64,000 nt of DNA from an uncultured bacterium (GCA_963826535.1 CAWGXL010000002.1:30503-94502), one strand, 5' to 3'. Numbered from the stretch's first letter, positions 1 through 32,880 are shown. Translations and numbers: made by a program. The notes: a model not told the origin generated them from the sequence alone.

Positions 1-1
1 G

Positions 2-415: not shown

Positions 416-490
416 ATTAAAGAGTGACATTTTTCTAAAGCGATCGCTTCTAAAAAATGTCAATGCTTGTGGAATAGAAGAGAACAAGGG

Positions 491-1213: not shown

Positions 1214-1319
1214 AGTTGTTATTTCCTTATATATAGTTGATTATCGAACAATGCATATTGTATCATACCATATCAAATATATCCACCGTTTGAATTTTTA
1301 ATATGCTACCATTAAATAT

Positions 1320-2411: not shown

Positions 2412-2447
2412 ACATTAGACCCGCTGAGCAGACCAAAAAGCAACTGA

Positions 2448-3071: not shown

Positions 3072-3170
3072 ATGACGAGAACCATATCATACTATGAGAT
3101 GTCTGTCAAATATTAAATTGACAACAGTTTATTTTAAAATTTAATTCCGCTCTGATTGAAATACATAAGC

Positions 3171-3275
3171 TTGTCATCCCTACCGAAGCGATAGCCTAGT
3201 TGAGGGATCTCACACAAATGAGTAGCTAAGGCGGTATGAGATTCCTCGACTCCCGTCGGTCGCTCGGAATGACAA
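3171..3275. repeat. Structured palindromic element, copy A: TTGTCATCCC...GGAATGACAA termini enclosing two hairpins closed by ATyCC/GGrAT stems
   Basis: Terminal inverted repeat TTGTCATCCC (3171-3180) / GGAATGACAA (3266-3275). Internal arms are ATCCC(3175-3179)...GGGAT(3204-3208) and ATTCC(3241-3245)...CGACtcccGTCG...GGAAT(3266-3270). It sits in the 3' intergenic region after the 3303..4850 gene. The architecture is shared with copy B at 52156..52271. Confidence 0.5.
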
Positions 3276-3302
3276 TACCAAGTCAACTTATTGCGGCGTA
3301 GT

Positions 3303-4850
3303 TTATTTGTCAACAACTGGTTGGTCAGGTGGCACAGCGCCTCTTTCCATCAATGCTCCCCCTGAACTGACTGGATAAGGATATGGTGGAGTTTGTCTGT
3401 CTTGGAAAAATATAAAGAAAATTAGAGCAAACACAATTCCATAAAACACGAGCCAGAAAATTGTCAGAATGAGAGTTGCCGATCCGGCAATAATCCCTTT
3501 TTTTATACCCACAATAATCCCGGGAGCGAATAAAAACATCGCATAAATACATAAAGAAATAACTGCAAAAAGGAGAATTAAAAGAGAATAGAAAAAGTTA
3601 TAACTGTAATATTGGAAAACCTGTACGAAGTAATAACTTAAAATGTACAAACCGATTGTATATAATAGTATAAGAAGTGACGCGCCGAAACTTGCCCCTA
3701 AAACCACCATGTAAGAAAGAGTTCTGAGGTTACTTGGTTGGTCAGGAGGAGTATCTTTTTTACCAAAAACCTTTTTTACAGCTATAAATAGCGATCCAAA
3801 TGCCAGCACCAGAACGAGAACAAAGATTCCGATTCCAACTCCTATTTCCCGGCCGTATAATTTCCATCTACTATCAGCATACACGCCATGAACTGTATAA
3901 GATTCATTTGGCTGGAGATTAGAAGCTGATTTTACTATTGTACCCTGACCAATTGAATTGTAAAATTGATCAAATTGAGCATTACCCGCGCTTCTCCCTT
4001 CATCAACCGCAGCACTCATAGGAGCGATTGATGTTTCTTTTGCCTGGTAATTAATATCTCCTTTTGCGTCTTTAAGGTAGTAATCAGGATCAACTATGAC
4101 TCCAACCTGCAGGCTTTGAATTGTATCCGCAACTTTAACCGTATCAACAGAAAAATTATATGCTCCAAGCATATCTTTATTCGTAACACCACTCATGGAA
4201 AAGGAAAGAAGCAAGCTTCCGCTGCCATTAGGCTTTACTTCTTTCGGTAATTGAACTGTCAGCTCGCTGCCATTAAGTACAAATTTTGCTTTATGATATG
4301 TTGTAGCCCCCCATCCATATGAATAGTCAGGCTCCTGATACTGATCGCATTTTTGTGTAGGTGGGGGATAATTGTAAATCATAGAATCACTTTCAGAAGT
4401 TAGCGGCATTGGTTGGTATGAAATACACTGCGGCTCCCGGTACACTTGATACACGCTGAGATTTTGCGGATCTTTTTGAAAAGTGAATTTAATTGCCGAC
4501 ACCGAAGCCTCTTCTCTATTTGAAAAAACTGTTTTCAAGGAGAACAAAGCGTCCCCATTGCCCCGTAAAGTTATAGTATAAAAATGATTTTGTCCAAAAG
4601 GGAGACTAGTTTCGGGATTAGGCACCGGGGGCATTATCTTCACCGGCTCGGCAACGCCTGGCATTGTCATTGGTTCCGCATCACGCATCCGATCTTCTGT
4701 CCAATATCCCTCACTCCCTGTAGATTCTGTAGTTGAAGATATGGGTGAAGAGACAGAAACGCTCGCTTTAGTATTATCTTGAGCGAAGGAAGTTATAGGA
4801 AGACAAAGGGTCAATAAAAACACAAACAATACAACCCAGCCTTTTTTCAT
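3303..4850 (-). CDS. secreted/membrane protein: N-terminal signal peptide, ~330-aa extracytoplasmic domain, C-terminal polytopic membrane domain
   Basis: The N-terminus MKKGWVVLFVFLLTLCLPITSFAQD is signal-peptide-like. The C-terminal ~170 aa form several hydrophobic helices (GIGIFVLVLVLAFGSLFIAV..., ...LILLYTIGLYILSYYF..., ...ILTIFWLVFYGIVFALIFFIFF). Confidence 0.6.
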   Translation of the reverse strand: MKKGWVVLFVFLLTLCLPITSFAQDNTKASVSVSSPISSTTESTGSEGYWTEDRMRDAEPMTMPGVAEPVKIMPPVPNPETSLPFGQNHFYTITLRGNGDALFSLKTVFSNREEASVSAIKFTFQKDPQNLSVYQVYREPQCISYQPMPLTSESDSMIYNYPPPTQKCDQYQEPDYSYGWGATTYHKAKFVLNGSELTVQLPKEVKPNGSGSLLLSFSMSGVTNKDMLGAYNFSVDTVKVADTIQSLQVGVIVDPDYYLKDAKGDINYQAKETSIAPMSAAVDEGRSAGNAQFDQFYNSIGQGTIVKSASNLQPNESYTVHGVYADSRWKLYGREIGVGIGIFVLVLVLAFGSLFIAVKKVFGKKDTPPDQPSNLRTLSYMVVLGASFGASLLILLYTIGLYILSYYFVQVFQYYSYNFFYSLLILLFAVISLCIYAMFLFAPGIIVGIKKGIIAGSATLILTIFWLVFYGIVFALIFFIFFQDRQTPPYPYPVSSGGALMERGAVPPDQPVVDK

Positions 4851-4889
4851 ATCTGTTCAAGTACACCATATTCTTTTATCTATGTCAAT

Positions 4890-5807
4890 TCAAAACTTCC
4901 ACCCAAGCTCTTTTTTGATTTCTTTCACGGCTTTCTCGTATTGCTCTTTAGTTAGCTGATTATTTAGAACGCAGTATTTTTTGTTGGCTAAATCCACACA
5001 GCCGAAGCAATCAGAGCAGTTTTTAAGATAGGCGCTATAATAACAATTGGTGCAATATTGACAAAAGTATAAAAAAGCACAGTTATAAAGAGAACGAGAA
5101 AGTGCTAGCTCATAACATCGCTCGGCAACAAGACTTCTGTCCGCGCTACCTGAGTAATATAAATCCCAACAGCTTTTTGCGTTTACGCTAATGAAAATAT
5201 AGCCTGAATTTTCACCATAAAAAGTATTAAAACACCAATAATTATTTTTTGAATTATAAATGTAATTACCATAAAGACAATTCTCATTATCCAACTGTTG
5301 GTTTGCGGGATGAGGAATTTGTCGTTTTAAATCAAACATTTGCTTGAGAAGCTTTTCAGGGTTTTGTTTTCTTAGCTCTTCAACTTTTTTAAAATATTCC
5401 TCTTTGGTATATTGTTTATTAAATATACAATATTTCTTATGAGTTAAACCTACACATCCGAAGCAATCTGCACAGGCATTTAACATCGCGGAAAAATGAC
5501 AGCCTGTACAACTGTTGCAATCCATCAGATACGTACAATTATGACATTTAGTGGAATCAATACATTGATAGCACTTTTCAGATTCTGCAACAAAAGTACA
5601 ATCTACGACTTTGTTACTCCAAAATCCATTCGAAGTATATATCCCGTCTTCCAAGTAGCTTGAAATAAAACAGTGATAGCAATTTTTGCTGTTATAAAGG
5701 ATATCTCCATATTCACAATCAACAGATTGGAAAGTTATAGTTGCCGGAACAGGAATAGATTTTTTCAGAAGCTCATATTTTTCCAGAAAGGTCATAATAA
5801 ATATCAA
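4890..5807 (-). CDS. Cys-rich repeat protein (about 30 Cys, internal two-fold duplication), paralog 1
   Basis: 305-aa ORF with repeated ~11-12-aa units carrying C-x2-C (CYHCF, CYQCI, CHNCT, CNSCTGC, CADCFGCVGL...KKYCIFNKQ). The second half repeats this pattern (...CQYCTNCYYSAYLKNCSDCFGCVDLANKKYCVLNNQ). It is about 65% identical to the ORF at 17309..18217, and the N-termini MTFLEK(Y/F)ELLKKSIPVPA are nearly identical. The likely true start is the second Met at 5795. Confidence 0.6.
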   Translation of the reverse strand: MIFIMTFLEKYELLKKSIPVPATITFQSVDCEYGDILYNSKNCYHCFISSYLEDGIYTSNGFWSNKVVDCTFVAESEKCYQCIDSTKCHNCTYLMDCNSCTGCHFSAMLNACADCFGCVGLTHKKYCIFNKQYTKEEYFKKVEELRKQNPEKLLKQMFDLKRQIPHPANQQLDNENCLYGNYIYNSKNNYWCFNTFYGENSGYIFISVNAKSCWDLYYSGSADRSLVAERCYELALSRSLYNCAFLYFCQYCTNCYYSAYLKNCSDCFGCVDLANKKYCVLNNQLTKEQYEKAVKEIKKELGWKF

Positions 5808-5849
5808 AAATTATTATAGCATAATTTATAATACCGTCTTGACAGCCCC

Positions 5850-5857
5850 TGTATAAT
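5850..5857 (+). promoter_or_regulatory. extended -10 element (TGTATAAT) upstream of topA
   Basis: TGTATAAT lies 46 nt upstream of the topA ATG. No well-spaced -35 hexamer is present. Confidence 0.3.
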
Positions 5858-5902
5858 GTAGACTACAATTATTTAAGTCCTGAAAGATGGACTAAATTTT
5901 TT

Positions 5903-8032
5903 ATGAGAAACCTTGTTATAGTTGAATCGCCTACAAAAGCAAGAACTATTGGTAAATTCTTAGGAAATGATTATGAGATTAAGTTCTCAATGGGACATAT
6001 TATTGATTTGCCCAAAAGTAAACTCGGGGTTGCGGTTGAAGATGGATTCACCCCGCAGTATGAAGTTATCGCGGATAAGAAAAAGATAATTGCGGATCTG
6101 CGCGCTTCAGCGAAAAAAGCGGACACAATCATTCTCGCGACAGACCCTGATCGTGAAGGAGAAGCGATCGCGTCCAATATTAAAGATGTTCTCTCTAAAA
6201 AAATTTTGGGCAAAGGCAAATCCCCCTCTGGTGAAAAAAACGAAAAATTTAAAAGGATTGTATTCCATGAAATCACAGAGGCTGCAATAAAAGAAGCACT
6301 TGCGAGTCCTAGGGATGTTGATGTTAATTTAGTTAATGCACAGACTGCAAGACGGGTTCTGGATCGGTTAGTCGGTTATCAATTATCACCGGTTTTGTGG
6401 AAGAAAGTTCGGCGGGGATTGTCAGCCGGTAGAGTGCAAAGTGTTACCTTGCGTCTTATTGTAGAGCGCGAGCGGGAAATTGAAAAATTCGCTAAGGAGC
6501 CATATTGGACAGTTCATGCGTTGTTTACAAAATTAGAAAATGACGCGGTAGAATTTACTTTATTAGAAATTAATGGTGAGAAAATAGAAACTTCTCAAAC
6601 ATTTACTCTTTACGATGGAGAATATAAAACAACAAAAACTATTATTGACAGTCAAAACAGAGCAGAGGAGATTGCCAAAGATATTACAGGGAAGAATTTT
6701 ACTGTCGCGGATGTGATCAAGCGGCAGATAAAACGTAGCCCCTATGCGCCTTTCACAACATCTACTATGCAGCAGGATGCATCCCGGCGATACGGATTTT
6801 CAGGAAAAAGGACTATGAGGTTAGCGCAAAAACTATACGAAGAAGGATTTATTACTTATCATAGAACCGATTCGGTAATTTTGTCCCGTCCCTCAATCAC
6901 ACAAATACGGACATTTATTCAAAAAGAATATGGTGAGAAATACGTGCCTGAAAAACCCCGGATTTATTCAGCCAAACAAAAACTTGCTCAGGAAGCTCAT
7001 GAAGGAATCAGGCCGACAAAAATCCAAAAAGTAAGCCTACAGGCAAATGGAGAAATAACAAATGATCATACTAAACTATATGAATTAATTTGGAAGCGGA
7101 CAGCCGCATCACAAATGAGTGATGCATTAATTGAATCAACAACTGTGTACGCAGATTCTACTGTTGTCATTGCGAGCGGTAGCGAATCAATCTCTAATAA
7201 TAATCTTTACAGATTTAAATCAACAGGCTCAGTACTTCTTTTCGATGGGTTCTTGAAATTGACTCCACTGGCTTTGCAGGATAGACAGCTACCACAATTT
7301 ATATCAGGGGAATCTTTGACACTAAGCAAATGTTTTAACACAGCGCATGAAACCCAACCGCCTCCAAGGTACAACGAGGCATCGCTGATCGCGGCTTTGG
7401 AAGAAAAAGGAATCGGCCGTCCATCAACATATGCTTCGATCGTCGCGACACTTATAGATCGCGGATATGCTGAACGAATTGAAAAGCGATTTGAACCAAC
7501 AGTTGTTGGGAAAGCGGTTAATGATTTTCTTGTCACTAATTTTTCAGCAATTGATGATATTCCGTTTACAGCGGAGATGGAAGATAAATTGGATAGCATT
7601 GCTCAAGGAAAAAAAGAATGGGTAGATATGATGCGCGACTTCTATACTCCTTTTGAAAAAAAGATAAGCGAGGTAGAAAGTGCAAGTAGAGTAAAGATAG
7701 AAACTCAGCCAACAAGTGAGATTTGTCCTCTATGCGGAGCAAATGTAGTGATAAGGTATGGAAAATTTGGAAAATTTCTTTCCTGTAGTAAATTTCCCGA
7801 ATGTAAGTTCACTAAATCTTATGCCGAGGAAACCAATTTAACCTGCCCAAAAGATAATGGAAACATTATTGTAAAGAAAACCCGCAAAGGCCGTAAATTT
7901 TTCGGTTGTTCCAATTATCCCGCCTGCGACTTCGCGGCGTGGAAGTTAGAAGACATTAAAAATTATGATCCAAACGCACCTGCAAAAAATAAAACTGAAA
8001 CGAAAATGATCTCTATCGGGAAGGAGAAGTAA
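5903..8032 (+). CDS. topA: DNA topoisomerase I with C-terminal zinc-ribbon repeats
   Basis: A 709-aa TOPRIM start (MRNLVIVESPTKARTIGKFLG...) is followed by the topoisomerase IA core (...GFITYHRTDS... with an active-site Tyr context). The C-terminus carries CxxC...CxxC ribbons (CPLCGANVVIRYGKFGKFLSCSKFPECKF; CPKDNG...FFGCSNYPACDF). Confidence 0.9.
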   Translation: MRNLVIVESPTKARTIGKFLGNDYEIKFSMGHIIDLPKSKLGVAVEDGFTPQYEVIADKKKIIADLRASAKKADTIILATDPDREGEAIASNIKDVLSKKILGKGKSPSGEKNEKFKRIVFHEITEAAIKEALASPRDVDVNLVNAQTARRVLDRLVGYQLSPVLWKKVRRGLSAGRVQSVTLRLIVEREREIEKFAKEPYWTVHALFTKLENDAVEFTLLEINGEKIETSQTFTLYDGEYKTTKTIIDSQNRAEEIAKDITGKNFTVADVIKRQIKRSPYAPFTTSTMQQDASRRYGFSGKRTMRLAQKLYEEGFITYHRTDSVILSRPSITQIRTFIQKEYGEKYVPEKPRIYSAKQKLAQEAHEGIRPTKIQKVSLQANGEITNDHTKLYELIWKRTAASQMSDALIESTTVYADSTVVIASGSESISNNNLYRFKSTGSVLLFDGFLKLTPLALQDRQLPQFISGESLTLSKCFNTAHETQPPPRYNEASLIAALEEKGIGRPSTYASIVATLIDRGYAERIEKRFEPTVVGKAVNDFLVTNFSAIDDIPFTAEMEDKLDSIAQGKKEWVDMMRDFYTPFEKKISEVESASRVKIETQPTSEICPLCGANVVIRYGKFGKFLSCSKFPECKFTKSYAEETNLTCPKDNGNIIVKKTRKGRKFFGCSNYPACDFAAWKLEDIKNYDPNAPAKNKTETKMISIGKEK

Positions 8033-8036
8033 AACT

Positions 8037-8834
8037 TTATTCCCCGGGCGAAGCGGGACAAACAAATTCACAATTAGGTCCGGTTCTCCCCACAAACGAT
8101 CCATCAGGACACTGCCTCGCATCCTCCGTGCAAAATGTTAGTTTCTGTGTAGGAGGTGGAATCGATACCTGCGCTTGGTCGAGGAATTTGAAGGTGGAGA
8201 TGATTTGGCCAAAAACCCTGGATGCATTTTCATCATAATATTGTATTTGTAGTTCGATTAATGGTTCCATATTGGTTTTAATTATATCGCTGCTTTCACC
8301 ATTTATTTCAACTAATTCAAAACCTTTTCCGGGAACACCTCCTAGAATAATTTGTCCTGAACGATTTCCGTTAATGCATTTTTTGACAATTTGACTACTT
8401 GAACATTCAGGATATGCTAGAAAATTTATAAATGATTTCGGATCATCAGACACAGTAATTCCTATCGCAGGGGTTCCATTTTGGTAATACAATATTATTT
8501 TAGTGTCTTTCTCTTCAATTTTGTCAATTTGCTGTGGATATTGAAAGGCAAAAGAATATCGATTATTAATATATGTTTTCATTTTACTCGGATCGGAAGT
8601 TGGAGAAGCAGAAAAAGAATTCGGAGATGTTGTCGGTTGTAATATAGCTAATTGTTTTTGTTTATAATTTGACGAAACATATTTAATTCCGAATACAACT
8701 ATTATAAAAATAAGTGAAAAAAGCAAAAAGTATTTGCCATATTTATCCAGGAACGAAGCATTAGGGTCATTCAACAATTTTTTATAGACCTCCGGAAGCT
8801 CTTGCTCTGGAGCAGGACGTTCAGAATTATCCAT
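8037..8834 (-). CDS. membrane-anchored hypothetical protein with a C-terminal 4-Cys module
   Basis: A single TM segment (FLLFSLIFIIVVFGIKYV) follows a ~35-aa cytoplasmic N-terminus. The extracytoplasmic C-terminus ends ...FCTEDARQCPDGSFVGRTGPNCEFVCPASPGE. Confidence 0.55.
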   Translation of the reverse strand: MDNSERPAPEQELPEVYKKLLNDPNASFLDKYGKYFLLFSLIFIIVVFGIKYVSSNYKQKQLAILQPTTSPNSFSASPTSDPSKMKTYINNRYSFAFQYPQQIDKIEEKDTKIILYYQNGTPAIGITVSDDPKSFINFLAYPECSSSQIVKKCINGNRSGQIILGGVPGKGFELVEINGESSDIIKTNMEPLIELQIQYYDENASRVFGQIISTFKFLDQAQVSIPPPTQKLTFCTEDARQCPDGSFVGRTGPNCEFVCPASPGE

Positions 8835-8967
8835 TAAGCTCAGTATTTCATATTACACAAACGAGTGTCAACAAAACATTTCCAGTTCCTGAATCTCCTT
8901 TTCAATACTTTTTAATTTCATTCAAATCAAATTAGGCGGATTTTGCACTATTTGCTATAATGGGTAT

Positions 8968-9852
8968 ATGGAAAAAGATTATTATAAAGCACTAGGTGTT
9001 TCTAAAAGTGCAACTCACGATGAAATAAAACGTGCCTACCGTAAGCTTGCTCTTGAATTTCATCCGGACCGTAATAAAACCAAAGAAGCAGGTGATAAGT
9101 TTAAAGAAATAACCAAAGCTTATGAAGTACTGTCCAATGATGAAAAAAGAAAAATGTACGACCAGGTAGGCCATGCAGCCTTCGAACAAGGAGCAGGTCA
9201 GGGTCCCTTTGGAGGCGGGGGCGGGCAATCTTCCGGACAATATGGACCTTTCACATATAGTTATCAAACGAATGGAGGAGGAGCTGACTTTGATTTCGGA
9301 GGCTACTCTGACCCATTTGAAATTTTCGAACAATTCTTCGGCGGCGGTTCACCATTCGGGCAACGACAGCGGCGCCCTATATACTCAGCAGCAATCAGTT
9401 TTATGGACGCAGCGCTCGGTACAGAGAAGGAGTTAATAATTAATGGAGAAAAACAGAAAATTAAAATTCCCGCAGGAGTTGATAGCGGTTCTAGAATCCG
9501 ATTTGAGAAGTATGACATTGTGCTTGATGTCAAGCCGGACGCACGCTTTGCGCGCGAAGGATCTGATGTTGTATCGGAAAAAGAAATCTCTTTCACACAA
9601 GCCGCAATAGGCGCGGAAATATCAGTCGCAACTGTTGATGGAGATATTAAAATACGCATACCCGAAGGAACACAACCTGGTACCTTGATCCGCCTTCAAG
9701 GACGAGGCATCCCTCATCTCAGAGGCAGCGGACGGGGAAGTCACTATGTACGCATCAAAGTCGTCGTCCCCAAAAAACTTTCAAAACAACAAAGAGATCT
9801 CCTTGAAGAATTTCAGAAAGAAGAGCTACAAGCAAAAAAACGCTGGTTCTAA
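8968..9852 (+). CDS. DnaJ-family J-domain protein (CbpA-like class II: J domain, G/F region, DnaJ C-terminal domains, no CxxCxGxG zinc finger)
   Basis: J domain [34 protein letters not shown] with the HPD motif, then a Gly/Phe-rich linker ([21 protein letters not shown]...[20 protein letters not shown]) and a C-terminal substrate-binding region. There are no Cys repeats. Confidence 0.8.
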
Positions 9853-9879
9853 AATTTGTTAAAAGTTAATTAATATTAT

Positions 9880-12800
9880 ATGGGAGAAACCTCACTTGCC
9901 GAGTCAATCGACCCAAAATTGGTAAATTTTCAAAAAGACGTACCTACTCAGAAAAAACCAAATTTGTATCTAGTTAACCCTCCGCAGCATCTAGAATCTT
10001 CCGCTAAAAAGAAAAATGGCGAAGTTCCTCATCCACCGGAAAAATCAAAATTTATATTTGACAGATCAAAAATTGAAGATGAATCAAAAAACTTTGATAA
10101 AGCAATACTAGATCCACTTACCGGAGTTGACCCTGCTTTTGAAGCAGGAACAAAAAACAATTTAGATTACCTTTGCCGCACCGGCGATCTTGAATTTAAC
10201 ACCCCAAGAACACAGATTCTTCAGAATATTGTCGATAAAATGACAGGACAAGACGGTATTCATGAAAAACTTATGACCGTATCTTCAAAAAAAGCAGTTG
10301 AAGCACGAATTGTAATAAAAAACAAAGGCGAGGCAGATGACGCCTTTGTACTTCCGGACGGGACGATTGTTTTATCTCAATCACTTATTGATAAGCTTAC
10401 TTTGGATGAGGTTGGCGGAGTCATGGCTCATGAGATTAACCACATCAGAACCGAAACAGCGGCAAAAAAAGAAGCAGCCGGAGGTCATGCATTTGGAGTT
10501 TGCTGGGCGCATGAAACCGCGGAAGACGCACTCGCTCCTGACCTATTGGTAAAAGCCGACCTTAATAGTTTAGGATTCTCTTCAGCAATCATCAAAGTTT
10601 CGGGCGCGGAAAGAGGAAGTATACATCAAAGTGGACTTTCCCGTGGTTCACAAAGCGTAGGACAGCACTTCGGACTGGATTTCGGCACAAGCAGCCAAGA
10701 ACAGACGCCACTTCCGGAACTACTAAAAACAAAAGAACCAATAAAAAAAACCAATCTGGAAGTAATGGGACAGCTTATCCGCCAGCAGGAACCTGAAAAT
10801 GTAGAACAAACGCTCTCTCTTTTGCACCCGCATGACTTAAAAGACGCTTATCAACATATAATCAATCAGGAGCGAGGAGGTGAATATTGGTCTCCAAAGG
10901 CGCTAACCGAGGAACAGAAAAAAATTATTGAGCTTGGCAGCGCGTATTTAAATAATCGATTGGAAGAAGCAGGCTATTCGCAAACTGAAAGGAATCTATT
11001 TTTTATCTTTATGCAAAGTTATAGTGCACGTACCCCCAGCTTCAGCATGATAAAAACACCTGAAATGGTGCTTGAAGCGACACGCGCTTTACCGGACTAC
11101 ATTAACTTTGGCGGACATGGCGACATTCATAGATCTCTTTTTGATAAAGAAATTACCGGCAGTACGGTGGAATCTTTCCTAAACATAATAAGTGCTAGAA
11201 TGCATGATACCGGTATCTCTCCTCAAGGTCAGAATGAAATACCCATCACAAAAGAGATTCTATTAAAAACACTGACTGAGATAAATTCGTGGGAAAATAT
11301 CGCCAACGGTTTAAAAGTTAAAGGTAAAGCAGGAGTATTTACCCAGGTCATAGAAAGTTATATAAGTAAAACCTACATCAGTACAGATAATGCCTATAAA
11401 AAGTTGCTTGATGAAACAAAAACAAGAGAATTACTTCAGGAAGTAAAAGATTTAAATATCCCAATAAATCTGGATACCCTTCATACAAGAATGAGTGCCT
11501 CTCCGGAAGAAAGAAAAGTTTATGAATTATTTAAAGAATTTTTTGTAGAAAAGAGCCCTAAAACAACTGAGCAAAGTATAGACGATTTTCTTGACTCATA
11601 TATAGGTCTACCGGAAAATGAAAAAGGAGGGGAACTTGATTATTTCATGAAAATAATCCGCAAAGATTTCGATGAAAAAGAACTAACAGACGCTCAAAGA
11701 ATAAATTATGTCAAGTATTTCGGGTCAAAAGTAAAAGAGCTCGATCTCTCATCAAATATTGACCTAAACAAGGAACTCAATCTGAATATTAAAGAAATTC
11801 CAGACAAAGAGCTATTCCAAAGAAACTTATTGGAATTTAATATGCAATCAAATGCTGCACTCGCCCTGCTGCAAAAAGACGGTGAAGAATTTTATGATTA
11901 TATTAAAGTACTTATGGATAAATCAGGCATTGATATACAAAACTGTTCTCCGGCAGGAATATACAATCTCAGCGCGAGCTTAATTAATATAGACAAAGGT
12001 CACTTTTACAACTTTGACGAGAAAAGTGTTAAAGAGAAAGATTATGTCTTCTTATTAAACCAAATAAAAATTGAAAACATAAATAAGTATCTTCAATTGC
12101 CGTTTCTCCAAAAACTCATGGAAGAATCTGAAAAAAAATTATCTTTTACAACATTAAAAGATTTAAACAAGTATATTGATACTGAAATATTCCAAAAAAG
12201 GCTTGATAGTAGAAGCAGCAGTCATTTATTTGAAGACACACTAAGCTCAATAATTACCCTAAAACCGGTTAGGGAAAATTTCTTGGAATTACTACAACGC
12301 GGTGTCCCTGAAGATGAATACCCACAGTTGTATAAATTTATAAAATTAGAATATCCATCAGGTCCGCGTGAAAAAGAATTTCTCAGAGCATTAAATGTCA
12401 GGTATTTGGACAAACCAATTGGTTCCCAAAACGAATTACATGAGAGAATTGATTATCTTAAGCAAAATTTTAATTCCGTCGGACCGGAGGGGATGGCACT
12501 ACTTGCCAATCATATCAATACATTGCCTCAATATCTGCATTTCAGGAAAGAAATGGCAGAGCTATTGGCCACTTATTTGGATGGGTCAGGTATAGTCAGC
12601 GCTGTCGCGATGGGAGACTTCGCAACCTCGTTTTTTACAAAACACTTTGCGGATCTATTAGAAAGCAGCAAAACAGACAAGCAGACAAAAAGTAAATTAT
12701 CAACAGACATGGCCAAGGAATGGTTCAAATTTTTCTTTATAGAAGGATCTAATCGTGATAAAAGAGTGAATTTTGACAAAGAAACAGGCAAAATAGAATT

Positions 12801-14574
12801 AAACGGTACCACACGAGATATTTTCAAAACATTTGCTGATTTGGTAAAAGAAATAAAAGGTCTTTCTGAACTTAAGAGATTTGCTATCACCCACAAATCA
12901 CTGGTTGATACCGGAGGAGCATTAACAGACGACAACAACAGAAAGCAATTGGGAGAAATACTTAACGCATCTCTGGAAACAAAGTCAACTTTTATCAGTC
13001 ATGCTCTGCAAAAAGGCTGCGAGCTAGCACCGGCAGAATTTTTCAGCTTCCCAATCTCAAAAATGCTTGCTCCTTTATTATTTAGGAGCCTTGATACCAA
13101 TTATGTGGATCTTAAAAAAGTATCGAGGGAAGATTATGAGGATAAAGTTCCATATAAACAGCTTCCTGTATTATTCGGATCAGACACCAGAGACGTAACG
13201 CTTTTTGGCGCACATTACAAAGGGGAGACTAATACAAAAGTTGCCCAAATGGCCATAGAAAGCGATGATCAATACCACCTCGCAACCCAATTACTTGATC
13301 GAATACTTACAGAAGAACCTGTTATAGGGGCGCCACATAAAGAGCCTGACGAAAAAGTTAAAGTTGATCCCAATACTGAAGCGATTATTAGCGCTGTTGA
13401 AGCGAGCGGGCCACTTGGAAAAAGATGTCTTCAGCTCTCGCGCCAACTTCATGAATTTGCGCCGGCTACAGACAGACGTCTTGCGAATTCCTTTGATAGC
13501 ACACCCGGTCTGAATAAATTGTTTCTTTGGGAAAATCTGGTCAGACATATGGAAAATGGTCATGACCCCGAACTTTCGGATTTTATAAAAAATAACCTTG
13601 TGGAGCTTAATGATGTCATAGCTGGCGGCAGCCTAAATACTGTAGCCAGCGCTAAAGTCAAAGATGAAAAAGGTAATACACGAAGCGCAGTTCTTCGTTA
13701 TCTCAACCCCAACCCGGAAGTTTTTATCGCAAAAACCCATGAAACAGCGCAAAAAGTATTAGAAGCAATTGAACTGACGGGAAATTCGCAAGATAGAAAA
13801 TTTGCGCGTATGGGATTAGTTTTTACTGATCTCTCCCGGGAATGGTGTCTCCGCGATATCAATGACCCGACATATGAAAAAGATGATGATGAATTTCGGG
13901 AGACTATTAGGTCATTCAATGAGCAAAAAGCAACATCATTCTATGCACCGGAACGGCTATTTACCCATAGAAAATTGAAAGTTGAGGAAGAAGCAGAAGG
14001 CAGGACAATAAATAAACTATTAAATGATGCAAACATATCTGTTAATGAAAAAAAGGAAACGGTCAACCGCCTAATGAGCTTTTTTGACTTTCAATTAACA
14101 AACCTGGCAGGAACCTCAGAGACAGGAGAAAATTACTATCTCATCCATTCAGATCCTCATGTTGGCAATTACATGATGGAAAATGGAAACTTAACAGAAA
14201 ACGCCGTACTAGATAGAAACATGTATTTGAAAATTAACGGGCAAGAAGCAAATATGTTTCATAATTTATTAAATACAGGCGACTATAAAACTTTTATTGA
14301 TCCGTTTATAGATGCATTATTGGATAAGAATAAAGTAATAAATGAAACTACAAGAAACGAAAGTAAAAAAAGGATAATGCGCTCCATGAAAACCGAGTAT
14401 TTAAAACAACAAATGTATCGCATGGTAAAATTCCGTTCAACCGTTGATAATTTTTCATTGATACGTAGTCTTATGAATGAATGCGCGGAAGCTAAGTTGG
14501 ATATACCGCTTGAAATGCGCCTTATGATCAGAAATGTAGAAATATTCAGAAATTTGGCGCAAAAATATTCTTAA
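9880..14574 (+). CDS. giant multidomain protein (1564 aa): N-terminal soluble M48-like Zn-metallopeptidase domain and C-terminal UbiB/ABC1-like atypical kinase domain
   Basis: The N-terminal region ...ADDAFVLPDGTIVLSQSLIDKLTLDEVGGVMAHEINHIRTE...AHETAEDALA fits the M48 pattern (NAF..G..ivl..gLl..l...El.aVlaHElgH, followed by the E..AD..A third-ligand motif). The C-terminal region GGSLNTVASAKVKDEKGNTRSAVLRYLNPN...HSDPHVGNYMMENG...VLDRNMY matches ABC1/UbiB motifs (ASIGQVH...VAVKVQRP; HADPHPGN), with K->R in VAVK and DFG->DRN. There is no signal peptide or TM segment. The ~900-aa Lys/Glu-rich middle has no motif I can name. Confidence 0.6.
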   Translation: MGETSLAESIDPKLVNFQKDVPTQKKPNLYLVNPPQHLESSAKKKNGEVPHPPEKSKFIFDRSKIEDESKNFDKAILDPLTGVDPAFEAGTKNNLDYLCRTGDLEFNTPRTQILQNIVDKMTGQDGIHEKLMTVSSKKAVEARIVIKNKGEADDAFVLPDGTIVLSQSLIDKLTLDEVGGVMAHEINHIRTETAAKKEAAGGHAFGVCWAHETAEDALAPDLLVKADLNSLGFSSAIIKVSGAERGSIHQSGLSRGSQSVGQHFGLDFGTSSQEQTPLPELLKTKEPIKKTNLEVMGQLIRQQEPENVEQTLSLLHPHDLKDAYQHIINQERGGEYWSPKALTEEQKKIIELGSAYLNNRLEEAGYSQTERNLFFIFMQSYSARTPSFSMIKTPEMVLEATRALPDYINFGGHGDIHRSLFDKEITGSTVESFLNIISARMHDTGISPQGQNEIPITKEILLKTLTEINSWENIANGLKVKGKAGVFTQVIESYISKTYISTDNAYKKLLDETKTRELLQEVKDLNIPINLDTLHTRMSASPEERKVYELFKEFFVEKSPKTTEQSIDDFLDSYIGLPENEKGGELDYFMKIIRKDFDEKELTDAQRINYVKYFGSKVKELDLSSNIDLNKELNLNIKEIPDKELFQRNLLEFNMQSNAALALLQKDGEEFYDYIKVLMDKSGIDIQNCSPAGIYNLSASLINIDKGHFYNFDEKSVKEKDYVFLLNQIKIENINKYLQLPFLQKLMEESEKKLSFTTLKDLNKYIDTEIFQKRLDSRSSSHLFEDTLSSIITLKPVRENFLELLQRGVPEDEYPQLYKFIKLEYPSGPREKEFLRALNVRYLDKPIGSQNELHERIDYLKQNFNSVGPEGMALLANHINTLPQYLHFRKEMAELLATYLDGSGIVSAVAMGDFATSFFTKHFADLLESSKTDKQTKSKLSTDMAKEWFKFFFIEGSNRDKRVNFDKETGKIELNGTTRDIFKTFADLVKEIKGLSELKRFAITHKSLVDTGGALTDDNNRKQLGEILNASLETKSTFISHALQKGCELAPAEFFSFPISKMLAPLLFRSLDTNYVDLKKVSREDYEDKVPYKQLPVLFGSDTRDVTLFGAHYKGETNTKVAQMAIESDDQYHLATQLLDRILTEEPVIGAPHKEPDEKVKVDPNTEAIISAVEASGPLGKRCLQLSRQLHEFAPATDRRLANSFDSTPGLNKLFLWENLVRHMENGHDPELSDFIKNNLVELNDVIAGGSLNTVASAKVKDEKGNTRSAVLRYLNPNPEVFIAKTHETAQKVLEAIELTGNSQDRKFARMGLVFTDLSREWCLRDINDPTYEKDDDEFRETIRSFNEQKATSFYAPERLFTHRKLKVEEEAEGRTINKLLNDANISVNEKKETVNRLMSFFDFQLTNLAGTSETGENYYLIHSDPHVGNYMMENGNLTENAVLDRNMYLKINGQEANMFHNLLNTGDYKTFIDPFIDALLDKNKVINETTRNESKKRIMRSMKTEYLKQQMYRMVKFRSTVDNFSLIRSLMNECAEAKLDIPLEMRLMIRNVEIFRNLAQKYS

Positions 14575-14606
14575 CATCAGAGTTCTAAGTTGAATGTTCA
14601 TGTTAT

Positions 14607-14615
14607 AATATAATT
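14607..14615 (+). promoter_or_regulatory. extended -10 element TGTTATAAT upstream of the MGMT-domain gene
   Basis: TGnTATAAT match 26 nt upstream of the ATG at 14641. Confidence 0.3.
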
Positions 14616-14640
14616 GTCAGTGCAGAAAAGTTTGTAATTT

Positions 14641-14949
14641 ATGAAAAAATCTTTTCGCGATAAAGTTTATGAAATTACAAAAAAAATTCCGAAAGGGAAA
14701 GTTGCGACCTACGGCCAAATCGCCGCAATGGCCGGTAGCCCAAGAGCAGCACGGGCTGTCGGGATGTTAATGAAAAATAATCCTGATATGCCAAGAACTC
14801 CTTGTCATCGCGTAGTTGCATCCGATGGCCGCTTGACAGGTTATTCAGCCAAAGATGGTATCAAAACAAAAAAGGAGATGCTTGTCGATGAAGGCGTGGT
14901 TTTTATTGGAGATAGAGTAAATTTGGTTAAGTCACAATGGAAGCCGTAG
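14641..14949 (+). CDS. stand-alone methylated-DNA-[protein]-cysteine S-methyltransferase DNA-binding domain protein (Ogt/MGMT C-terminal domain only)
   Basis: 102-aa ORF with the ...TYGQIA...AARAVG...NP...PCHRVV... signature. The PCHR active-site Cys is present and the N-terminal domain is absent. Confidence 0.75.
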   Translation: MKKSFRDKVYEITKKIPKGKVATYGQIAAMAGSPRAARAVGMLMKNNPDMPRTPCHRVVASDGRLTGYSAKDGIKTKKEMLVDEGVVFIGDRVNLVKSQWKP

Positions 14950-14959
14950 AGAATTCTGC

Positions 14960-14990
14960 TTGACTTATTTACTCTTTTTTAATATATAAT
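14960..14990 (+). promoter_or_regulatory. sigma70-like promoter candidate for the purF-purN gene (TTGACT ... TATAAT)
   Basis: TTGACT at 14960-14965 and TATAAT at 14985-14990, with a 19-bp spacer. It lies about 115 nt upstream of the 15106 start in an AT-rich leader. Confidence 0.35.
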
Positions 14991-15105
14991 ATAAGTAATA
15001 TGCGTCACCATTATTGCAAAAGAGCTGCCAAGACTGGGTAGAATATCCATAACTGAACCTCGCTTAGCGGGGTTTTTTAATTTTAGAACTTATTTTGTAT
15101 TAATT

Positions 15106-17274
15106 ATGATAAACCGAAAGGCGTTCGGTAATTTAGTTGTTTTGAAAGAGCAATTAAAAGAGAAGTGCGGAGTCATTGGGGTTTGGTCTGGAGAAAAAAT
15201 TGCGCCTTATTATGTACGAAAAGGTTTGTCCACACTGCAGCATCGAGGTCAAGAAAGTGCCGGAATTAGCATTTACACTCCTCAAGACAAAATAAAAACT
15301 TATTCAGGCATGGGTCTTGTTCTCGGTGTGCTGACAGCCGAAGTTCTTAAGCAGCTGGGAGAAAGTATGGCTGCTATTGGACATAATAGATATTCTACCA
15401 GCGGCAGTACCAGTTTAAGTAATGCCCAACCTATTACGCTCAAAAAGGGAAAATTTGAATTGAGCATAGGACATAATGGCAATATCCCTGATTGCGAGTA
15501 CCTTGGAGAACAAATAGAAGAAAAACAAAAAGAAGGAGAAACCAGCGATACTCATCTAGTCGCAAAGCTCCTATTGCAAGAACGGCCAAACTATTCAGAT
15601 TGGGACGAAACCCTAAAACAAGTATTACCGCGAATTCGCGGAGCTTTTTGTTTTGTAATTTTAACTGAAGACGGCAACATTTACGGCGCCCGCGATACAT
15701 ATGGTATACGGCCCTTTTGTTTAGGAAAATTTGAGAATGGGTGGATTATTGCCTCAGAATCTGTTGCTGTTGATTTAACAGGTGCCGAATTTTTGCGCGA
15801 TATTAAACCGGGAGAGATTATTAAGATCAGCTTTGATGGGAAGCTTACCTCTTTCTTTTTCGGTGCGCCATCAAGAGAACAGAATTGTATTTTTGAATAT
15901 ATTTATTTTTCCCGCCCGGATAGTTTTGAAAATGGCATTAGGATAAGAAAAGGGCGTGAAGAATCAGGCAGACTGTTGGGACAGCGAATTCTGAAAAAGG
16001 CAATCTTGGCAGATGTCGTGGTCCCTGTCTTTGACTCCGGATATCCGGCGGCGAAAGGAGTGGCGCATGTTCTTGGATTGCCTCTTGTGGACGCTATTAC
16101 TGTAAGTCATTATATCGGCCGAACTTTTATCCAACCGGGGCATGAAAATAGAAAGGCAGCAGTGAATGGCAAGCATAATATTATACCCGATGATATTAAG
16201 GGTATGCGAATTATTGTGGTTGATGATTCAGCAGTACGATTAACAACGAGCAAGCGGTTGACTCGTGAATTAAATGCAGCAGGTGCAAAGAGTGTATTTA
16301 TGGCTATTGCCAGCCCTCCAGTTGTTAACCACTGCGATATGGGCATTGATATGAAAAGTAAAAAAGAACTGCCGGCTTCTCTTTGGGAACATGAACCATT
16401 TGAGCTGATTGAAGAAAATGTTGCCAAGTTTATAGGCTCAAATGCAGCCGTGTATTTGCCAATTGAAGATTTAACCCGCGCTTTAGGAGGCGCAAAAGAG
16501 GATTTCTATCACTATCCGTTTGGTGGACCGCATCCTATACGCGATGCACAGCATAAATTTCCCAAGAGGAAGAAAACTATAAATCCTAAACCAAGAATAG
16601 CAATTTTAATTTCCGGAACTGGCACAAATCTTCAGGCAATTATCGATGGTGTAAAAACTCATGATATTGAGGCAGAAATCGTTTCAGTGGTATCGAACAA
16701 AAAGGACGCCTATGGTCTCAAAAGAGCCAAAGAGAATAATATTCCAACCCTCGTTCTTCCTATGACAGGAAAACTGAATGATAAAGTCGCGAGAAAAGAA
16801 TTTGAGTTGAAGCTTCTTGCTCATATCAAAAAGACCGCCGCCGACCTTATTGTTTTGGCTGGCTGGATGTTGGTTTTGGGGGATGAGTTCCTATCTGCTT
16901 TAGCAAAATTGGAAGTGCCTGTTATTAATCTTCATCCCGCGTTATTATCAAAAGGCAATGAAGATCATATCGCTACATCACGCGGGACTATCCCGGTTAT
17001 CCGTGGTATAGGTACACAAGCAATAAAATATGCTTTTGACAAAAACTTACTTGTTTCAGGAGTGACAGTCCATCAAATACTCCCCAAAAATAATTTTGAT
17101 ATCGGCCCGGTCATTTTAAAAGAGGAAGTAAGAAGAAGAAAAGAAGATACACTTGAAACATTTGAGAAACGAACTCATGAAGCGGAATATCGGGTTTTAC
17201 CAACAGCGATCAAAAGAGTTTTGCACGTCATGAAACAAGGAGTAGATGTAAGCCGCGGGGAGTTTTATTGGTAA
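15106..17274 (+). CDS. purF: fusion protein: amidophosphoribosyltransferase (PurF, with ~20-aa propeptide) fused to phosphoribosylglycinamide formyltransferase (PurN)
   Basis: The PurF part has the Ntn class-II amidotransferase start ...KEKCGVIGVW after a propeptide, and a PRTase motif ...GMRIIVVDDSAVRLTTSKRL.... The C-terminal ~200 aa read PRIAILISGTGTNLQAIIDG...VINLHPALLSK...GVTVHQI, the PurN formyltransferase signatures. Confidence 0.8.
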   Translation: MINRKAFGNLVVLKEQLKEKCGVIGVWSGEKIAPYYVRKGLSTLQHRGQESAGISIYTPQDKIKTYSGMGLVLGVLTAEVLKQLGESMAAIGHNRYSTSGSTSLSNAQPITLKKGKFELSIGHNGNIPDCEYLGEQIEEKQKEGETSDTHLVAKLLLQERPNYSDWDETLKQVLPRIRGAFCFVILTEDGNIYGARDTYGIRPFCLGKFENGWIIASESVAVDLTGAEFLRDIKPGEIIKISFDGKLTSFFFGAPSREQNCIFEYIYFSRPDSFENGIRIRKGREESGRLLGQRILKKAILADVVVPVFDSGYPAAKGVAHVLGLPLVDAITVSHYIGRTFIQPGHENRKAAVNGKHNIIPDDIKGMRIIVVDDSAVRLTTSKRLTRELNAAGAKSVFMAIASPPVVNHCDMGIDMKSKKELPASLWEHEPFELIEENVAKFIGSNAAVYLPIEDLTRALGGAKEDFYHYPFGGPHPIRDAQHKFPKRKKTINPKPRIAILISGTGTNLQAIIDGVKTHDIEAEIVSVVSNKKDAYGLKRAKENNIPTLVLPMTGKLNDKVARKEFELKLLAHIKKTAADLIVLAGWMLVLGDEFLSALAKLEVPVINLHPALLSKGNEDHIATSRGTIPVIRGIGTQAIKYAFDKNLLVSGVTVHQILPKNNFDIGPVILKEEVRRRKEDTLETFEKRTHEAEYRVLPTAIKRVLHVMKQGVDVSRGEFYW

Positions 17275-17308
17275 CCCGCCTTACGCATAACATGATAAAA
17301 TAAGAACG

Positions 17309-18217
17309 ATGACCTTTCTTGAAAAATTCGAACTCCTGAAAAAATCAATTCCTGTTCCGGCCATAACGATTGACAAATCTACAATTGATTGTGAATACGT
17401 AGATTATGCCTATGGAAGCAAAAATTGCTATTATTGTTTTACTAGCAATCTACTTAAAGACAGTATGTATTCAACAATGGGATGGGGCGATAAGTTAGTA
17501 GATTGTACTTATTTAGCAGAGTCGGAAAGATGTTTTCAATGCGTTGATTGCACTAAATGTTATAGCTCTACCTATTTAATGGATTGTAATAGCACTACTG
17601 ATTGCCATTTCTCGGCATTTTTAAACTCTTGCAACGATTGTTTTGGTTGTGTTGCATTAACTCATAAGAAATATTGTATTTTCAACAAACAATACACAAA
17701 AGATGAATATATGAAAAAAGTTGAAGAATTAAAAAAAGAAAAACCTGAAAAGATTCTAAAACAAATGCTGGAATTAAAAAAACAAATACCTCATCCCGCA
17801 AGCATACAATACAATAATGAAAAAAGCCCTTATGGTGATTATATATATGATTCAAAGAACGTTTATTGGGGTTTTAATTGTTGGTATGGAGAAAATTGTG
17901 GATATATCTATACAGGCGGTACGTCGAAAAACTCATGGGACACTTTTTTCTCAGGCGGATTCAAATCTAAAGGAACTATTTCTGAACGAGTTTATGAACA
18001 AGTAGATTCAGTCGTATGTTACGATTGTGCATTTCTTAACAATTGTAATAACTGCACTAATTGTTATTACAGCGCGGATATGAGAAACTGCTCAGACTGC
18101 TTCGGTTGCGTTGGGCTATCAAAGAAAAAATACTGTATCCTCAATAATCAACTAACCAAAGACCAATACGAAAAAGCTGTTAAAAATATCAGAAAAGAAC
18201 TTGGGTGGAAATCTTAG
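17309..18217 (+). CDS. Cys-rich repeat protein, paralog 2, embedded in the purine operon
   Basis: 302-aa ORF about 65% identical to 4890..5807 with the same C-x2-C repeat architecture and N-terminus (MTFLEKFELLKKSIPVPA). It starts 35 bp after purF-purN and overlaps the purD start. Confidence 0.6.
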   Translation: MTFLEKFELLKKSIPVPAITIDKSTIDCEYVDYAYGSKNCYYCFTSNLLKDSMYSTMGWGDKLVDCTYLAESERCFQCVDCTKCYSSTYLMDCNSTTDCHFSAFLNSCNDCFGCVALTHKKYCIFNKQYTKDEYMKKVEELKKEKPEKILKQMLELKKQIPHPASIQYNNEKSPYGDYIYDSKNVYWGFNCWYGENCGYIYTGGTSKNSWDTFFSGGFKSKGTISERVYEQVDSVVCYDCAFLNNCNNCTNCYYSADMRNCSDCFGCVGLSKKKYCILNNQLTKDQYEKAVKNIRKELGWKS

Positions 18218-18233
18218 TCTTGGAAAGATAGAT

Positions 18234-19535
18234 ATGGTAAAAAAGTCAGTCCTCATCATCGGCAACCTAGCCCGCGAACATGCCCTGGGTTGGAAACTTA
18301 AACAATCTGCCAAAGTAGGAAAAATTTATTTTGCTCCCGGAAATGTGGGCACTGGTCTAATTGGTGAGAATACAGGAATTGATGCCCTTGATATTAAGTC
18401 ATTAGTAAAATTTGCTAAAACGCATAATATTTATTTGACCGTTGCCGGCCCTGACGCATCGCTTGCTGCCGGAGTAGTTGACGAGTTTAAAAAAGCTAAA
18501 ATGAAAATTTTCGGACCCACTAAGAATGCGGCACAAATTGAATCATCAAAAGCCTTTTCGAAACAGTTGATGAAAGAAGAAAATATCCCGACAGCAGTTT
18601 TTAAAAAATTTACCGATCCCTCAAAAGCCAACAAATATGTCAAAACACTAAGCTTGCCGATTGTCATAAAAGCCAGTGGATTGGCATCGGGTAAAGGAGT
18701 AATTATCGCAAAAACCTTAGACGTAGCGCAAAGATTAATTGATGATATTTTAATTAAGAAAATCTTCGGAGAATCAGGCAATGAAATAATCATTGAAGAA
18801 TTTTTAGAAGGCCATGAAATTTCCATCCACGCTTTTTGTGACGGAAAAACCGTTTCAGTATTTCCTGTAAGTAAAGATCACAAGTCTATTTTTGAAAACA
18901 ACCTCGGGCCAAACACCGGCGGCATGGGAACGATTGCACCTGTGCCGGGTTTAAATAAATCTTTTTTGAAAGAAGTAAATCAAACAATTGTTCAACCGGC
19001 TCTCAATGGCATGAAGAAAAAAGGAATTACCTTTACCGGTTGTTTATATCCGGGATTAATTTTAACCAAACAAGGACCAAAAGTACTCGAATTTAATTCC
19101 CGTTTTGGCGACCCGGAAATGGAATCTTACATGAGGATTTTAGAGACCGATATTTTTGATATTTTAGAAGCATGTGTCAACAGTACACTTTCTCAACTGA
19201 ATATCAAATGGAAAAAACAATTCGCATGTTGTATAGTCCTTGCATCCGCTGGTTATCCAGGAACAGTAAAGACAGGAGAAATTATACATGGCCTTAAACT
19301 TACTCCTCCCTTGATAAAGGGAGGTCGGGAGGGATTTAATAATGACGTTGCAGTATTCCATTTCGGAACCAAAATTGAAAATGGGAACTTAGTCACAAAT
19401 GGCGGCAGGGTCCTCGGCATAACAGCAATCGGAAATACTTTGGATCAGGCTTTAGATAAAGCATATGCTATGATTGGAGAAAAAGGAATCCATTTTTCGG
19501 GAATGCAATATAGACGGGATATTGGAAGATCATGA
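18234..19535 (+). CDS. purD: phosphoribosylamine--glycine ligase (GAR synthetase)
   Basis: The PurD N-terminus reads MVKKSVLIIGNLAREHALGWKLKQSAKVGKIYFAPGNVGT. The ATP-grasp body is present. The C-terminus reads ...NGGRVLGITAIGNTLDQALDKAY. The track ORF begins at an upstream TTG (18201), and ATG 18234 is the more likely start. Confidence 0.85.
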   Translation: MVKKSVLIIGNLAREHALGWKLKQSAKVGKIYFAPGNVGTGLIGENTGIDALDIKSLVKFAKTHNIYLTVAGPDASLAAGVVDEFKKAKMKIFGPTKNAAQIESSKAFSKQLMKEENIPTAVFKKFTDPSKANKYVKTLSLPIVIKASGLASGKGVIIAKTLDVAQRLIDDILIKKIFGESGNEIIIEEFLEGHEISIHAFCDGKTVSVFPVSKDHKSIFENNLGPNTGGMGTIAPVPGLNKSFLKEVNQTIVQPALNGMKKKGITFTGCLYPGLILTKQGPKVLEFNSRFGDPEMESYMRILETDIFDILEACVNSTLSQLNIKWKKQFACCIVLASAGYPGTVKTGEIIHGLKLTPPLIKGGREGFNNDVAVFHFGTKIENGNLVTNGGRVLGITAIGNTLDQALDKAYAMIGEKGIHFSGMQYRRDIGRS

Positions 19536-22534: not shown

Positions 22535-22548
22535 TTGAAAATTATTTT

Positions 22549-23346: not shown

Positions 23347-23386
23347 TACTGTTTGCAATATTGAGCTTATAGTGATATAATAATTT

Positions 23387-24400: not shown

Positions 24401-24404
24401 CTTT

Positions 24405-25511: not shown

Positions 25512-25520
25512 TTATTTATT

Positions 25521-28048: not shown

Positions 28049-28164
28049 AAAAAACGTTTTGGATTTTAGATTTTGGTCATTTGACATTGTTTCGGATTTG
28101 GCGCTTTGGTATTAGAATTTTAATTGATTTATAGAAATGTTATACTTTTAGTAGTTTTAATATT

Positions 28165-32101: not shown

Positions 32102-32169
32102 TAAGGAATAACATACTCTACAAAGGTTAAATATTTGCTACAAAAAATGTAAGAAAAAAGGAAGAAATA

Positions 32170-32770: not shown

Positions 32771-32880
32771 ACATTGCTATACTACAAGAGCCAGTGCTGC
32801 TTGTCAAATTTTTGTTTCAAACGTAAGGTCGATGTTTCCAAAAAAGGAAGAAAACTAGCCCCCTCTATACTCTAATAAAT

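Follow-up and report, generated by a model that had tools for sequence, protein, structure and literature searches.

Two cysteine-rich proteins of the same kind are encoded in inverted orientation on a 64,000-nucleotide stretch of DNA from an uncultured bacterium (GCA_963826535.1 CAWGXL010000002.1:30503-94502; hereafter the window), where they flank an 11.5-kb block, and one of them lies inside a purine biosynthesis operon. What are these proteins, and do they invert the block or take part in purine synthesis, as a preliminary description of the locus had proposed? Our analysis indicates that both are very probably core-only members of a very large family of cysteine-ladder proteins, predicted to fold as beta-solenoids, that is found only in the Candidate Phyla Radiation (CPR, or Patescibacteria). 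The mechanism suggested for them below is tentative and more doubtful than the identity, and the two taken together stand at about an even chance of being correct. The earlier observation was accurate, both mechanistic proposals attached to it fail and the remaining interest lies in the family itself.

Copy 1 occupies positions 4890..5795 on the minus strand (301 amino acids, identical to the database protein P0021; stop codon 4890-4892, start codon ATG 5793-5795) and copy 2 positions 17309..18217 on the plus strand (302 amino acids, identical to P0001). The bounds given before for copy 2 stand, while the 5' end of copy 1 had been placed at 5807. Judging from the sequence, the ATG at 5795 is the most likely start rather than the TTG at 5807, because the DNA similarity between the copies opens at the ATG of MTFLEK; P0021 begins at the same ATG. 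Both open reading frames (ORFs) are present and related as described, with 65% identity and 80% positives over 302 amino acids (BLASTP, E = 1e-131) and 17 of 18 residues identical at the N-termini. At the DNA level the copies are 72% similar, the similarity being bounded by the ATG of MTFLEK and the stop codon, and the longest exact match is 23 nt. The synonymous divergence (dS) is about 2 and dN/dS is 0.11; the copies are old paralogues, each under purifying selection. They are the only family members in the 64-kb window, and their flanking genes had been named correctly (topA, dnaJ, the gene of a 1,564-residue protein with an M48 motif, a gene for an MGMT-type domain, a purF-purN fusion and purD).

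The proteins contain 27 and 25 cysteines, fewer than the 30 or so counted earlier. Gaps between successive cysteines are divisible by three in 25 of 26 and in 21 of 24 cases, a regularity that 20,000 shuffles never matched. Family-wide, the autocorrelation of cysteine frequency reaches 0.77 at lag 3 and about 0.6 at lags 9 and 12. The regularity of the sequence is therefore a period of three, and not the unit of 11-12 residues suggested before; a 12-residue coil is what the superposition of the structure model suggests. Every third position is occupied by cysteine (or by serine, alanine or leucine). Each protein arose by tandem duplication of a roughly 150-residue unit, the halves of copy 2 being 41% identical to each other (E = 4e-35), and each unit closes with the conserved motif C-x2-C-F-G-C-V-x-L-x2-K-x-Y-C-(I/V)-(L/F)-N, followed by a helix. 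In both proteins each half contains a single match to the longer end-of-half pattern reported earlier, C.DCFGCV.L..KKYC[IV][FL]N.Q.TK[ED][EQ]Y, at residues 108 and 260/261 respectively. In copy 2, the first predicted beta-solenoid half (residues 20-125, 17366..17683, plus strand), with a cysteine or small residue at each third position, has the end-of-half motif CNDCFGCVALTHKKYCIFNKQYTKDEY (17630..17710, plus strand) and is joined by a basic helical linker (residues 126-165, 17684..17803, plus strand), modelled with low confidence, to the second predicted half (residues 166-280, 17804..18148, plus strand). The latter has the end-of-half motif CSDCFGCVGLSKKKYCILNNQLTKDQY (18089..18169, plus strand). 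The pattern finds the corresponding motifs of copy 1 as CADCFGCVGLTHKKYCIFNKQYTKEEY (5394..5474) and CSDCFGCVDLANKKYCVLNNQLTKEQY (4938..5018), both on the minus strand.

Conservation was measured in an alignment of 333 family members at no more than 60% identity. Among the cysteines, C108, C111 and C114 of the first motif are kept in 89-94% of members, C267 and C276 of the second in 97% and 87%, and C40 in 80%, and the C-x2-C-x2-C(-x8-C) cluster is conserved family-wide. At the remaining core positions cysteine is found in only 30-77% of members, serine, leucine or alanine substituting freely. Each half also carries a near-invariant aspartate and asparagine (D65, 95%, and N126, 99%; D211, 96%, and N279, 100%). 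Neither protein has a hydrophobic N-terminus or a transmembrane segment (maximum Kyte-Doolittle mean over 19 residues, 0.95-1.21); the N-terminus is hydrophilic, in agreement with the absence of a signal peptide noted before. A reading as DNA mimics was rejected since the cores are only mildly acidic and the net charge does not fit.

Copy 2 is modelled as a narrow beta-solenoid, and the structure closest to the model is the antifreeze protein of Tenebrio molitor (TmAFP, PDB 1ezg), which has a disulfide core; further narrow antifreeze beta-solenoids (1m8n and 3ult) are near. TmAFP is a structural analogue of the window proteins and not a member of their family. The superposition shows 14% identity with no detectable sequence homology, and the ice-binding Thr-x-Thr ladder and the TCT motif of the 12-residue TmAFP repeat (TCTxSxxCxxAx) are missing from the window proteins (no TCT; one and zero TxT), which unlike TmAFP have two solenoids, the conserved C-x2-C-x2-C cap and helices. 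TmAFP-type proteins are secreted and have a disulfide core, whereas the window proteins lack a signal peptide. A disulfide core is unlikely in them because they are bacterial and probably cytoplasmic, and a cysteine-lined beta-solenoid in the bacterial cytoplasm would be an unusual structural solution. With the TmAFP-like model and the conserved cysteine cluster, the metal-binding or disulfide-braced repeat fold proposed earlier remains a fair description.

Sequence, profile and domain searches matched no characterised family; the preliminary description had likewise been unable to assign the proteins to one. Both proteins were without a match in Pfam (at E <= 1) and NCBIfam, and scans with Pfam, NCBIfam, PHROGs and PADLOC assigned no family to them or to the longer members of the family (long forms, described below), leaving weak PHROG matches to families of unknown function and sub-threshold treble-clef matches in the long forms. 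No nuclease or transposase was matched in the Pfam, NCBIfam and PADLOC scans, and among PADLOC models none matched short or long forms, the neighbouring ATPase alone matching mad8/HerA. Searches of PDB sequences, with single sequences and with profiles, gave no significant match, and a Foldseek search of a long-form model against the PDB gave nothing at E <= 0.1. Other beta-helix repeat families of bacteria differ in register, which is three in the window proteins and five or six elsewhere, and the cysteine-rich core is unique to the present family among them. Pentapeptide-repeat proteins (PF00805) gave no Pfam match at E <= 1 and their A[DN]Lxx motif occurs nowhere in the window proteins; the hexapeptide left-handed beta-helix (PF00132; [LIV]-G-x4) of acyltransferases and gamma-carbonic anhydrases and the bactofilins gave no Pfam match either. 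The 4Fe-4S signature of ferredoxins, CxxCxxCxxxCP, is also absent, the spacing here being C-x2-C-x2-C-x8-C without the proline, and no Fer4 Pfam match was found.

Among 5.8 billion proteins, the search brought up 961 relatives for copy 2, all unnamed and all lacking Pfam domains. An exhaustive hidden Markov model scan of 1.84 billion representatives gave 3,435 clusters (50% identity) at E <= 1e-3 and 1,120 at E <= 1e-30, and a scan of one genome per species gave at least 498 family loci. Named records are nearly all CPR (Levy-, Gottesman-, Peregrini-, Peri-, Gracili-, Staskawicz-, Nomura-, Berkel- and Saccharibacteria, among others), a few being bins of metagenome-assembled genomes with other labels, and tblastn found no homologues in 50,697 phage records. 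The family is very large and restricted to CPR/Patescibacteria. The 196,521-bp contig on which the exact window proteins are found has at least four family clusters attributed to it, P0019 and P0033 being the two besides the window copies, and a single related contig of 894,453 bp has 28; each set probably lies on a single contig, in which case the 28 copies would make up about 3% of its DNA. CPR/Patescibacteria genomes are about 1 Mb in size, yet some appear to hold dozens of copies. No description of the family was found in the literature, and no database has a name for it. Beta-solenoids as a fold class and the zinc modules are of known kinds; the libraries and papers searched contain no account of the family or its cysteine ladder, of how abundant it is in minimal genomes or of its link to an orphan ATPase (see below).

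The genomic context was studied in the best 80 of the at least 498 family loci, which are not a random sample and hold 216 members. In length, 125 of the 216 members fall within 540-600 residues and 32 within 290-330, with intermediate forms of about 410 residues (N-terminal region plus core) and about 470 residues (core plus C-terminal region). The family is modular. In most CPR classes the core lies inside proteins of about 560 residues, flanked by N- and C-terminal regions, and the window proteins are the core-only form. An Arg-rich CxxC module is common to the N- and C-terminal regions of the long forms, and the C-terminal region ends in a double CxxC (treble-clef-like) version of it. This paired CxxC is shared with PF13451 (zf_Tbcl), PF23477 (zf_Tbcl_2) and TIGR04272 ('probable treble clef'), of which the two Pfam families are themselves of no known function. 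The curated cut-offs of such models are not reached by the long forms or by the stand-alone neighbour (21.9 bits where 24 are required, and 21.7 where 27 are), although precomputed matches of this type exist for a few members of the family; the module (two CxxC pairs in about 40-50 residues) is absent from both window proteins. In Microgenomates-type genomes the zinc module is a separate gene of about 95 codons that adjoins the short-form gene, as seen in five short-form loci; its product aligns with the long-form C-terminus with a hhalign probability of 99.8% (E = 2e-29), which links the two by gene fusion or fission.

Family genes form arrays in which neighbouring members lie on the same strand in all 125 pairs. 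Paralogues within one locus have a median identity of 41%, and between related genomes one-to-one pairs of 60-72% identity stand above a background of 35-49%, so the paralogues predate the splits between these genomes. A stronger claim of conserved orthologous subfamilies, from 185 of 202 best matches lying in another genome, was dropped for this weaker form, since the arrays that end in an ATPase gene, compared position by position, show no diagonal. Two kinds of neighbour recur besides the zinc module. A divergent TrmB-type regulator stands at 11 of 65 visible upstream array boundaries, and a VirD4/TrwB-type ATPase occurs in 11 of the 80 loci against about 2 expected (Poisson P ~8e-6, assuming about two such genes per genome of about 1,000 genes). 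The ATPase matches PF02534, PF10412 and PF12696, is mostly without convincing transmembrane segments and appears soluble; it lies beside or at the 3' end of arrays in several CPR classes (L001 3434-6918; L064 5684-9112; also L049, L037 and L015). L001, to which the window proteins are most closely related among genome-derived loci, has the gene order ATPase, zinc gene, short form and rplS. The other genes of a type IV secretion system (T4SS), in which VirD4/TrwB proteins serve for coupling, were not seen in the family loci, and the ATPase here seems soluble. In Patescibacteria 5,713 VirD4-like homologues have been counted in 2,918 genomes, only 148 of them near virB4; in the single strain tested, epibiotic growth did not require the homologue, and the authors state that exaptation 'cannot be ruled out' (PMC12102498). 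That work makes no mention of the cysteine-rich family. It leaves the role of the VirD4-like ATPase gene in Patescibacteria open (PMC12102498), and the recurrent link to the family gives a tangible starting point for studying this gene.

Among other neighbours, a recurrent 1,040-residue protein was rejected as a partner, being SecDF in lineage-local synteny, and linkage to topA (2 of 80 loci) is at about chance level. HicA/HicB-like toxin-antitoxin genes, named from their sequence, and Fic genes (a Pfam match in L039) adjoin some members (L002 5481-5992; L004 6438-7235; L039 7497-8411), which hints that some copies reside in accessory or variable regions. In L073 the family genes and zinc modules are fragmented under genetic code 11; these could be pseudogenes, or the lineage could read UGA as sense (code 25).

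Copy 2 lies between the purF-purN fusion (15106..17274, plus strand) and purD (18234..19535, plus strand). The spacers are 34 nt (17275..17308, from the purF-N stop codon to the ATG of copy 2) and 16 nt (18218..18233, from the copy 2 stop codon to the ATG of purD), the start of purD being the ATG at 18234 and not the TTG at 18201 by homology with L081, the closest relative among 47 metagenomic loci encoding relatives of the window purD (purD 78%, purF-N 73% and purL 62% identical). In L081 a 10-nt spacer bearing AGGAG, without any insert, separates the purF-N stop codon from the ATG of purD. The window replaces these 10 nt with 34 nt, a 909-nt gene and 16 nt, and no target duplication or terminal repeats are seen at the junction in comparison with L081. 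None of the 47 purD loci contains a family member, and pur genes lie near members in 1 of the 80 family loci. A functional link to purine synthesis is thus not supported, the preliminary description itself having named missing synteny with pur genes in relatives as grounds for refuting it. The one locus, L046 from Nomurabacteria (2801-12060), has two long forms between purL and purF and is a second, independent pur-cluster case; its members have 71-72% identical orthologues in the ordinary five-gene array of L042, without pur genes. Because the L081 junction is uninterrupted, no purD locus holds a member and the L046 orthologues lie outside pur genes, copy 2 is a lineage-specific insertion into a formerly contiguous purF-N/purD junction. 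The co-transcription proposed for copy 2 is physically plausible on the evidence of the spacers, of the consensus scan, which found no terminator-like site among purF-N, copy 2 and purD, and of a terminator-like hairpin (15055-15075) upstream of purF-N with a promoter-like site (15082-15110) behind it. This pair (15055..15110, plus strand), seen in a consensus scan only, is likely to mark the start of a transcript carrying purF-N, copy 2 and purD. Such co-transcription would reflect position and not pathway membership, which an operon position does not by itself imply.

We propose that each half of the window proteins would form a narrow, TmAFP-like beta-solenoid of 12 residues per coil, with the period-3 cysteine, serine and alanine residues as its core. 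Most cysteines would then be core-packing residues, as their conservation suggests, and each solenoid may be capped by a structural metal, Zn or Fe, bound by the invariant cluster at its last coil. Rather than an enzyme, the protein may be a module for binding or scaffolding, soluble in the cytoplasm and bearing outer surfaces specific to each paralogue, and would cooperate with the Arg-rich zinc module. At canonical loci the solenoid would work with the soluble, orphan VirD4-like hexameric ATPase under the TrmB-type regulator, perhaps as an adaptor or a substrate of this motor. In the window, copy 2 would be a passenger expressed by read-through of the pur transcript and copy 1 would be expressed from its own promoter region, and neither is likely to rearrange DNA. 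One may go further and suppose that the family is the missing partner of orphan soluble VirD4-like ATPases and the arrays, made up of metal-capped cysteine-ladder solenoids with Arg-rich zinc modules, a CPR-specific, TrmB-controlled, ATP-driven machine for nucleic acid or protein cargo; this we hold to be unlikely as it stands. If true, this would amount to a system of a new kind, based on a metal-stabilised solenoid fold not described before, in which the window proteins are core-only subunits.

Several results weigh against this proposal. The solenoid geometry differs by model, the short form resembling the right-handed 12-residue TmAFP and the long form weakly resembling left-handed helices of 15-18 residues, and the first solenoid half is modelled with only moderate confidence (predicted local distance difference test, 55-85). 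The metal site and the identity of the metal are guesses, because AlphaFold cannot place metals, and the conserved polar residues D65, D211, E73, K120, N126 and N279 could instead belong to an active site like those of beta-helix enzymes. Neighbouring genes for the ATPase, TrmB and the zinc module recur, yet in a minority of loci, and none of them lies within the 64-kb window. The order of paralogues in the arrays differs between genomes, and deeper comparisons saturate.

The setting of the two copies suggests other explanations. In the first, copy 2 would function in de novo purine synthesis, either as part of the pathway or by regulating it, and would be kept in the operon on that account; it could, for instance, supply PurF with a metal or an Fe-S unit. 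Its tight packing in the operon and the two long forms in the purine cluster of the distant L046 would suit such a role; L081, which does without the gene, the counts of 0 of 47 and 1 of 80, the pur-free orthologues in L042 and the location of most members in arrays unrelated to metabolism make it very improbable. In the other proposal taken over from the preliminary description, the inverted copies, 11.5 kb apart, are recombination arms that flip the block with topA, dnaJ, the giant gene, the MGMT gene and purF-N. The arms are 72-79% identical, with the 23-nt longest match and dS of about 2 given above, and efficient RecA-dependent recombination needs longer near-identical tracts. The copies share no flanking sequence, and apart from the two coding sequences, which are 72-79% complementary, no inverted repeats were found at the block borders, a whole-window search for recombinases not having been made. 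In its present orientation purF-N adjoins purD-purL exactly as in L081, therefore inversion would split the operon, and gene strand and GC skew continue unbroken from the block into the downstream region. As the family is multi-copy (the at least 4 and the 28 clusters attributed to two contigs), the 'pair' is an artefact of the window, and an inverted pair within 64 kb is unremarkable; inverted paralogues of such a family do not imply an invertible segment. Inversion by homologous recombination is very unlikely, and the block as a genetic switch is scarcely credible.

The remaining alternatives concern the family as a whole. A cysteine-lined core could bind many metals or Fe-S units, comparable in principle to the cysteine-lined copper storage proteins, and a high copy number could then buffer metal or sulfur in anaerobic CPR cells. 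This would fit 25-27 cysteines per 300 residues in a single inward-facing register, the CxxCxxC runs and a cytoplasmic location where disulfides are not expected, and storage could tolerate the variable cysteine occupancy of the core. We nevertheless regard it as improbable: most core cysteines are freely exchanged for serine, leucine or alanine, the model packs the TmAFP-like core tightly, the ferredoxin signature is missing, distinct paralogues with distinct orthologues of 60-72% identity suggest specific and not bulk functions, and storage leaves unexplained why a motor ATPase, a regulator and Arg-rich zinc modules are linked to the family. Alternatively, the members could be cargo of a secretion motor, translocated substrates or effectors that the VirD4-like coupling ATPase recognises and passes into the cell on which the epibiont lives, the arrays forming an effector repertoire. 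The ATPase next to or at the end of arrays in 11 of 80 loci, the occasional Fic and HicAB neighbours and the Arg-rich C-terminus of the long forms agree with this, but the ATPase mostly lacks convincing transmembrane segments, the paralogues are old and under purifying selection and not fast-evolving, and the window proteins lack the Arg-rich C-terminal module. Moreover, 97% of VirD4-like copies lie away from T4SS genes and the homologue proved dispensable to an epibiont in the single strain tested (PMC12102498). The probability that we attach to secreted cargo is accordingly low. A selfish gene, of which the short form spreads as single-gene copies into intergenic spacers like free-standing homing endonuclease genes, would account for the clean single-gene insertion into a 10-nt operon spacer and for the many dispersed copies in Microgenomates-type contigs; CxxC-rich proteins include some nucleases. 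The copies have no terminal repeats, target duplication or common flanks, they are 60-70% identical and not near-identical with dN/dS of 0.11, no nuclease, transposase or PADLOC match and no phage homologue was found in the scans given above, and elsewhere the family forms stable arrays including orthologues, all of which makes selfish spread quite improbable. An insertion sequence or transposon was rejected: the similarity is confined to the coding sequences, the copies are 72% identical, no transposase family was matched and the comparison with L081 shows no duplication at the junction.

Other features of the window deserve mention. No tRNA genes and no Rfam families at the gathering threshold were found in 1..64000 of the window. 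The purF-purN fusion is one ORF of 722 residues with GATase, PRTase and Formyl_trans_N domains; it is common to L081 (73% identity), the genes being separate in more distant purD loci. The giant gene of the block (9880..14574, plus strand) encodes 1,564 residues, of which an M48 peptidase HExxH stretch at residues 144-195 is the sole recognisable feature, the rest being without a Pfam match. Downstream of copy 1, the ORF at 3303..4850 (minus strand) encodes 515 residues without a Pfam match, with a signal-like N-terminal segment and a strongly hydrophobic C-terminal third. The MGMT-type gene (14641..14949, plus strand) encodes a 102-residue protein consisting of the DNA_binding_1 domain only, with the PCHRV active-site motif, and thus of a minimal methyltransferase type; it is followed by the best terminator-like hairpin of the region (15055-15075).

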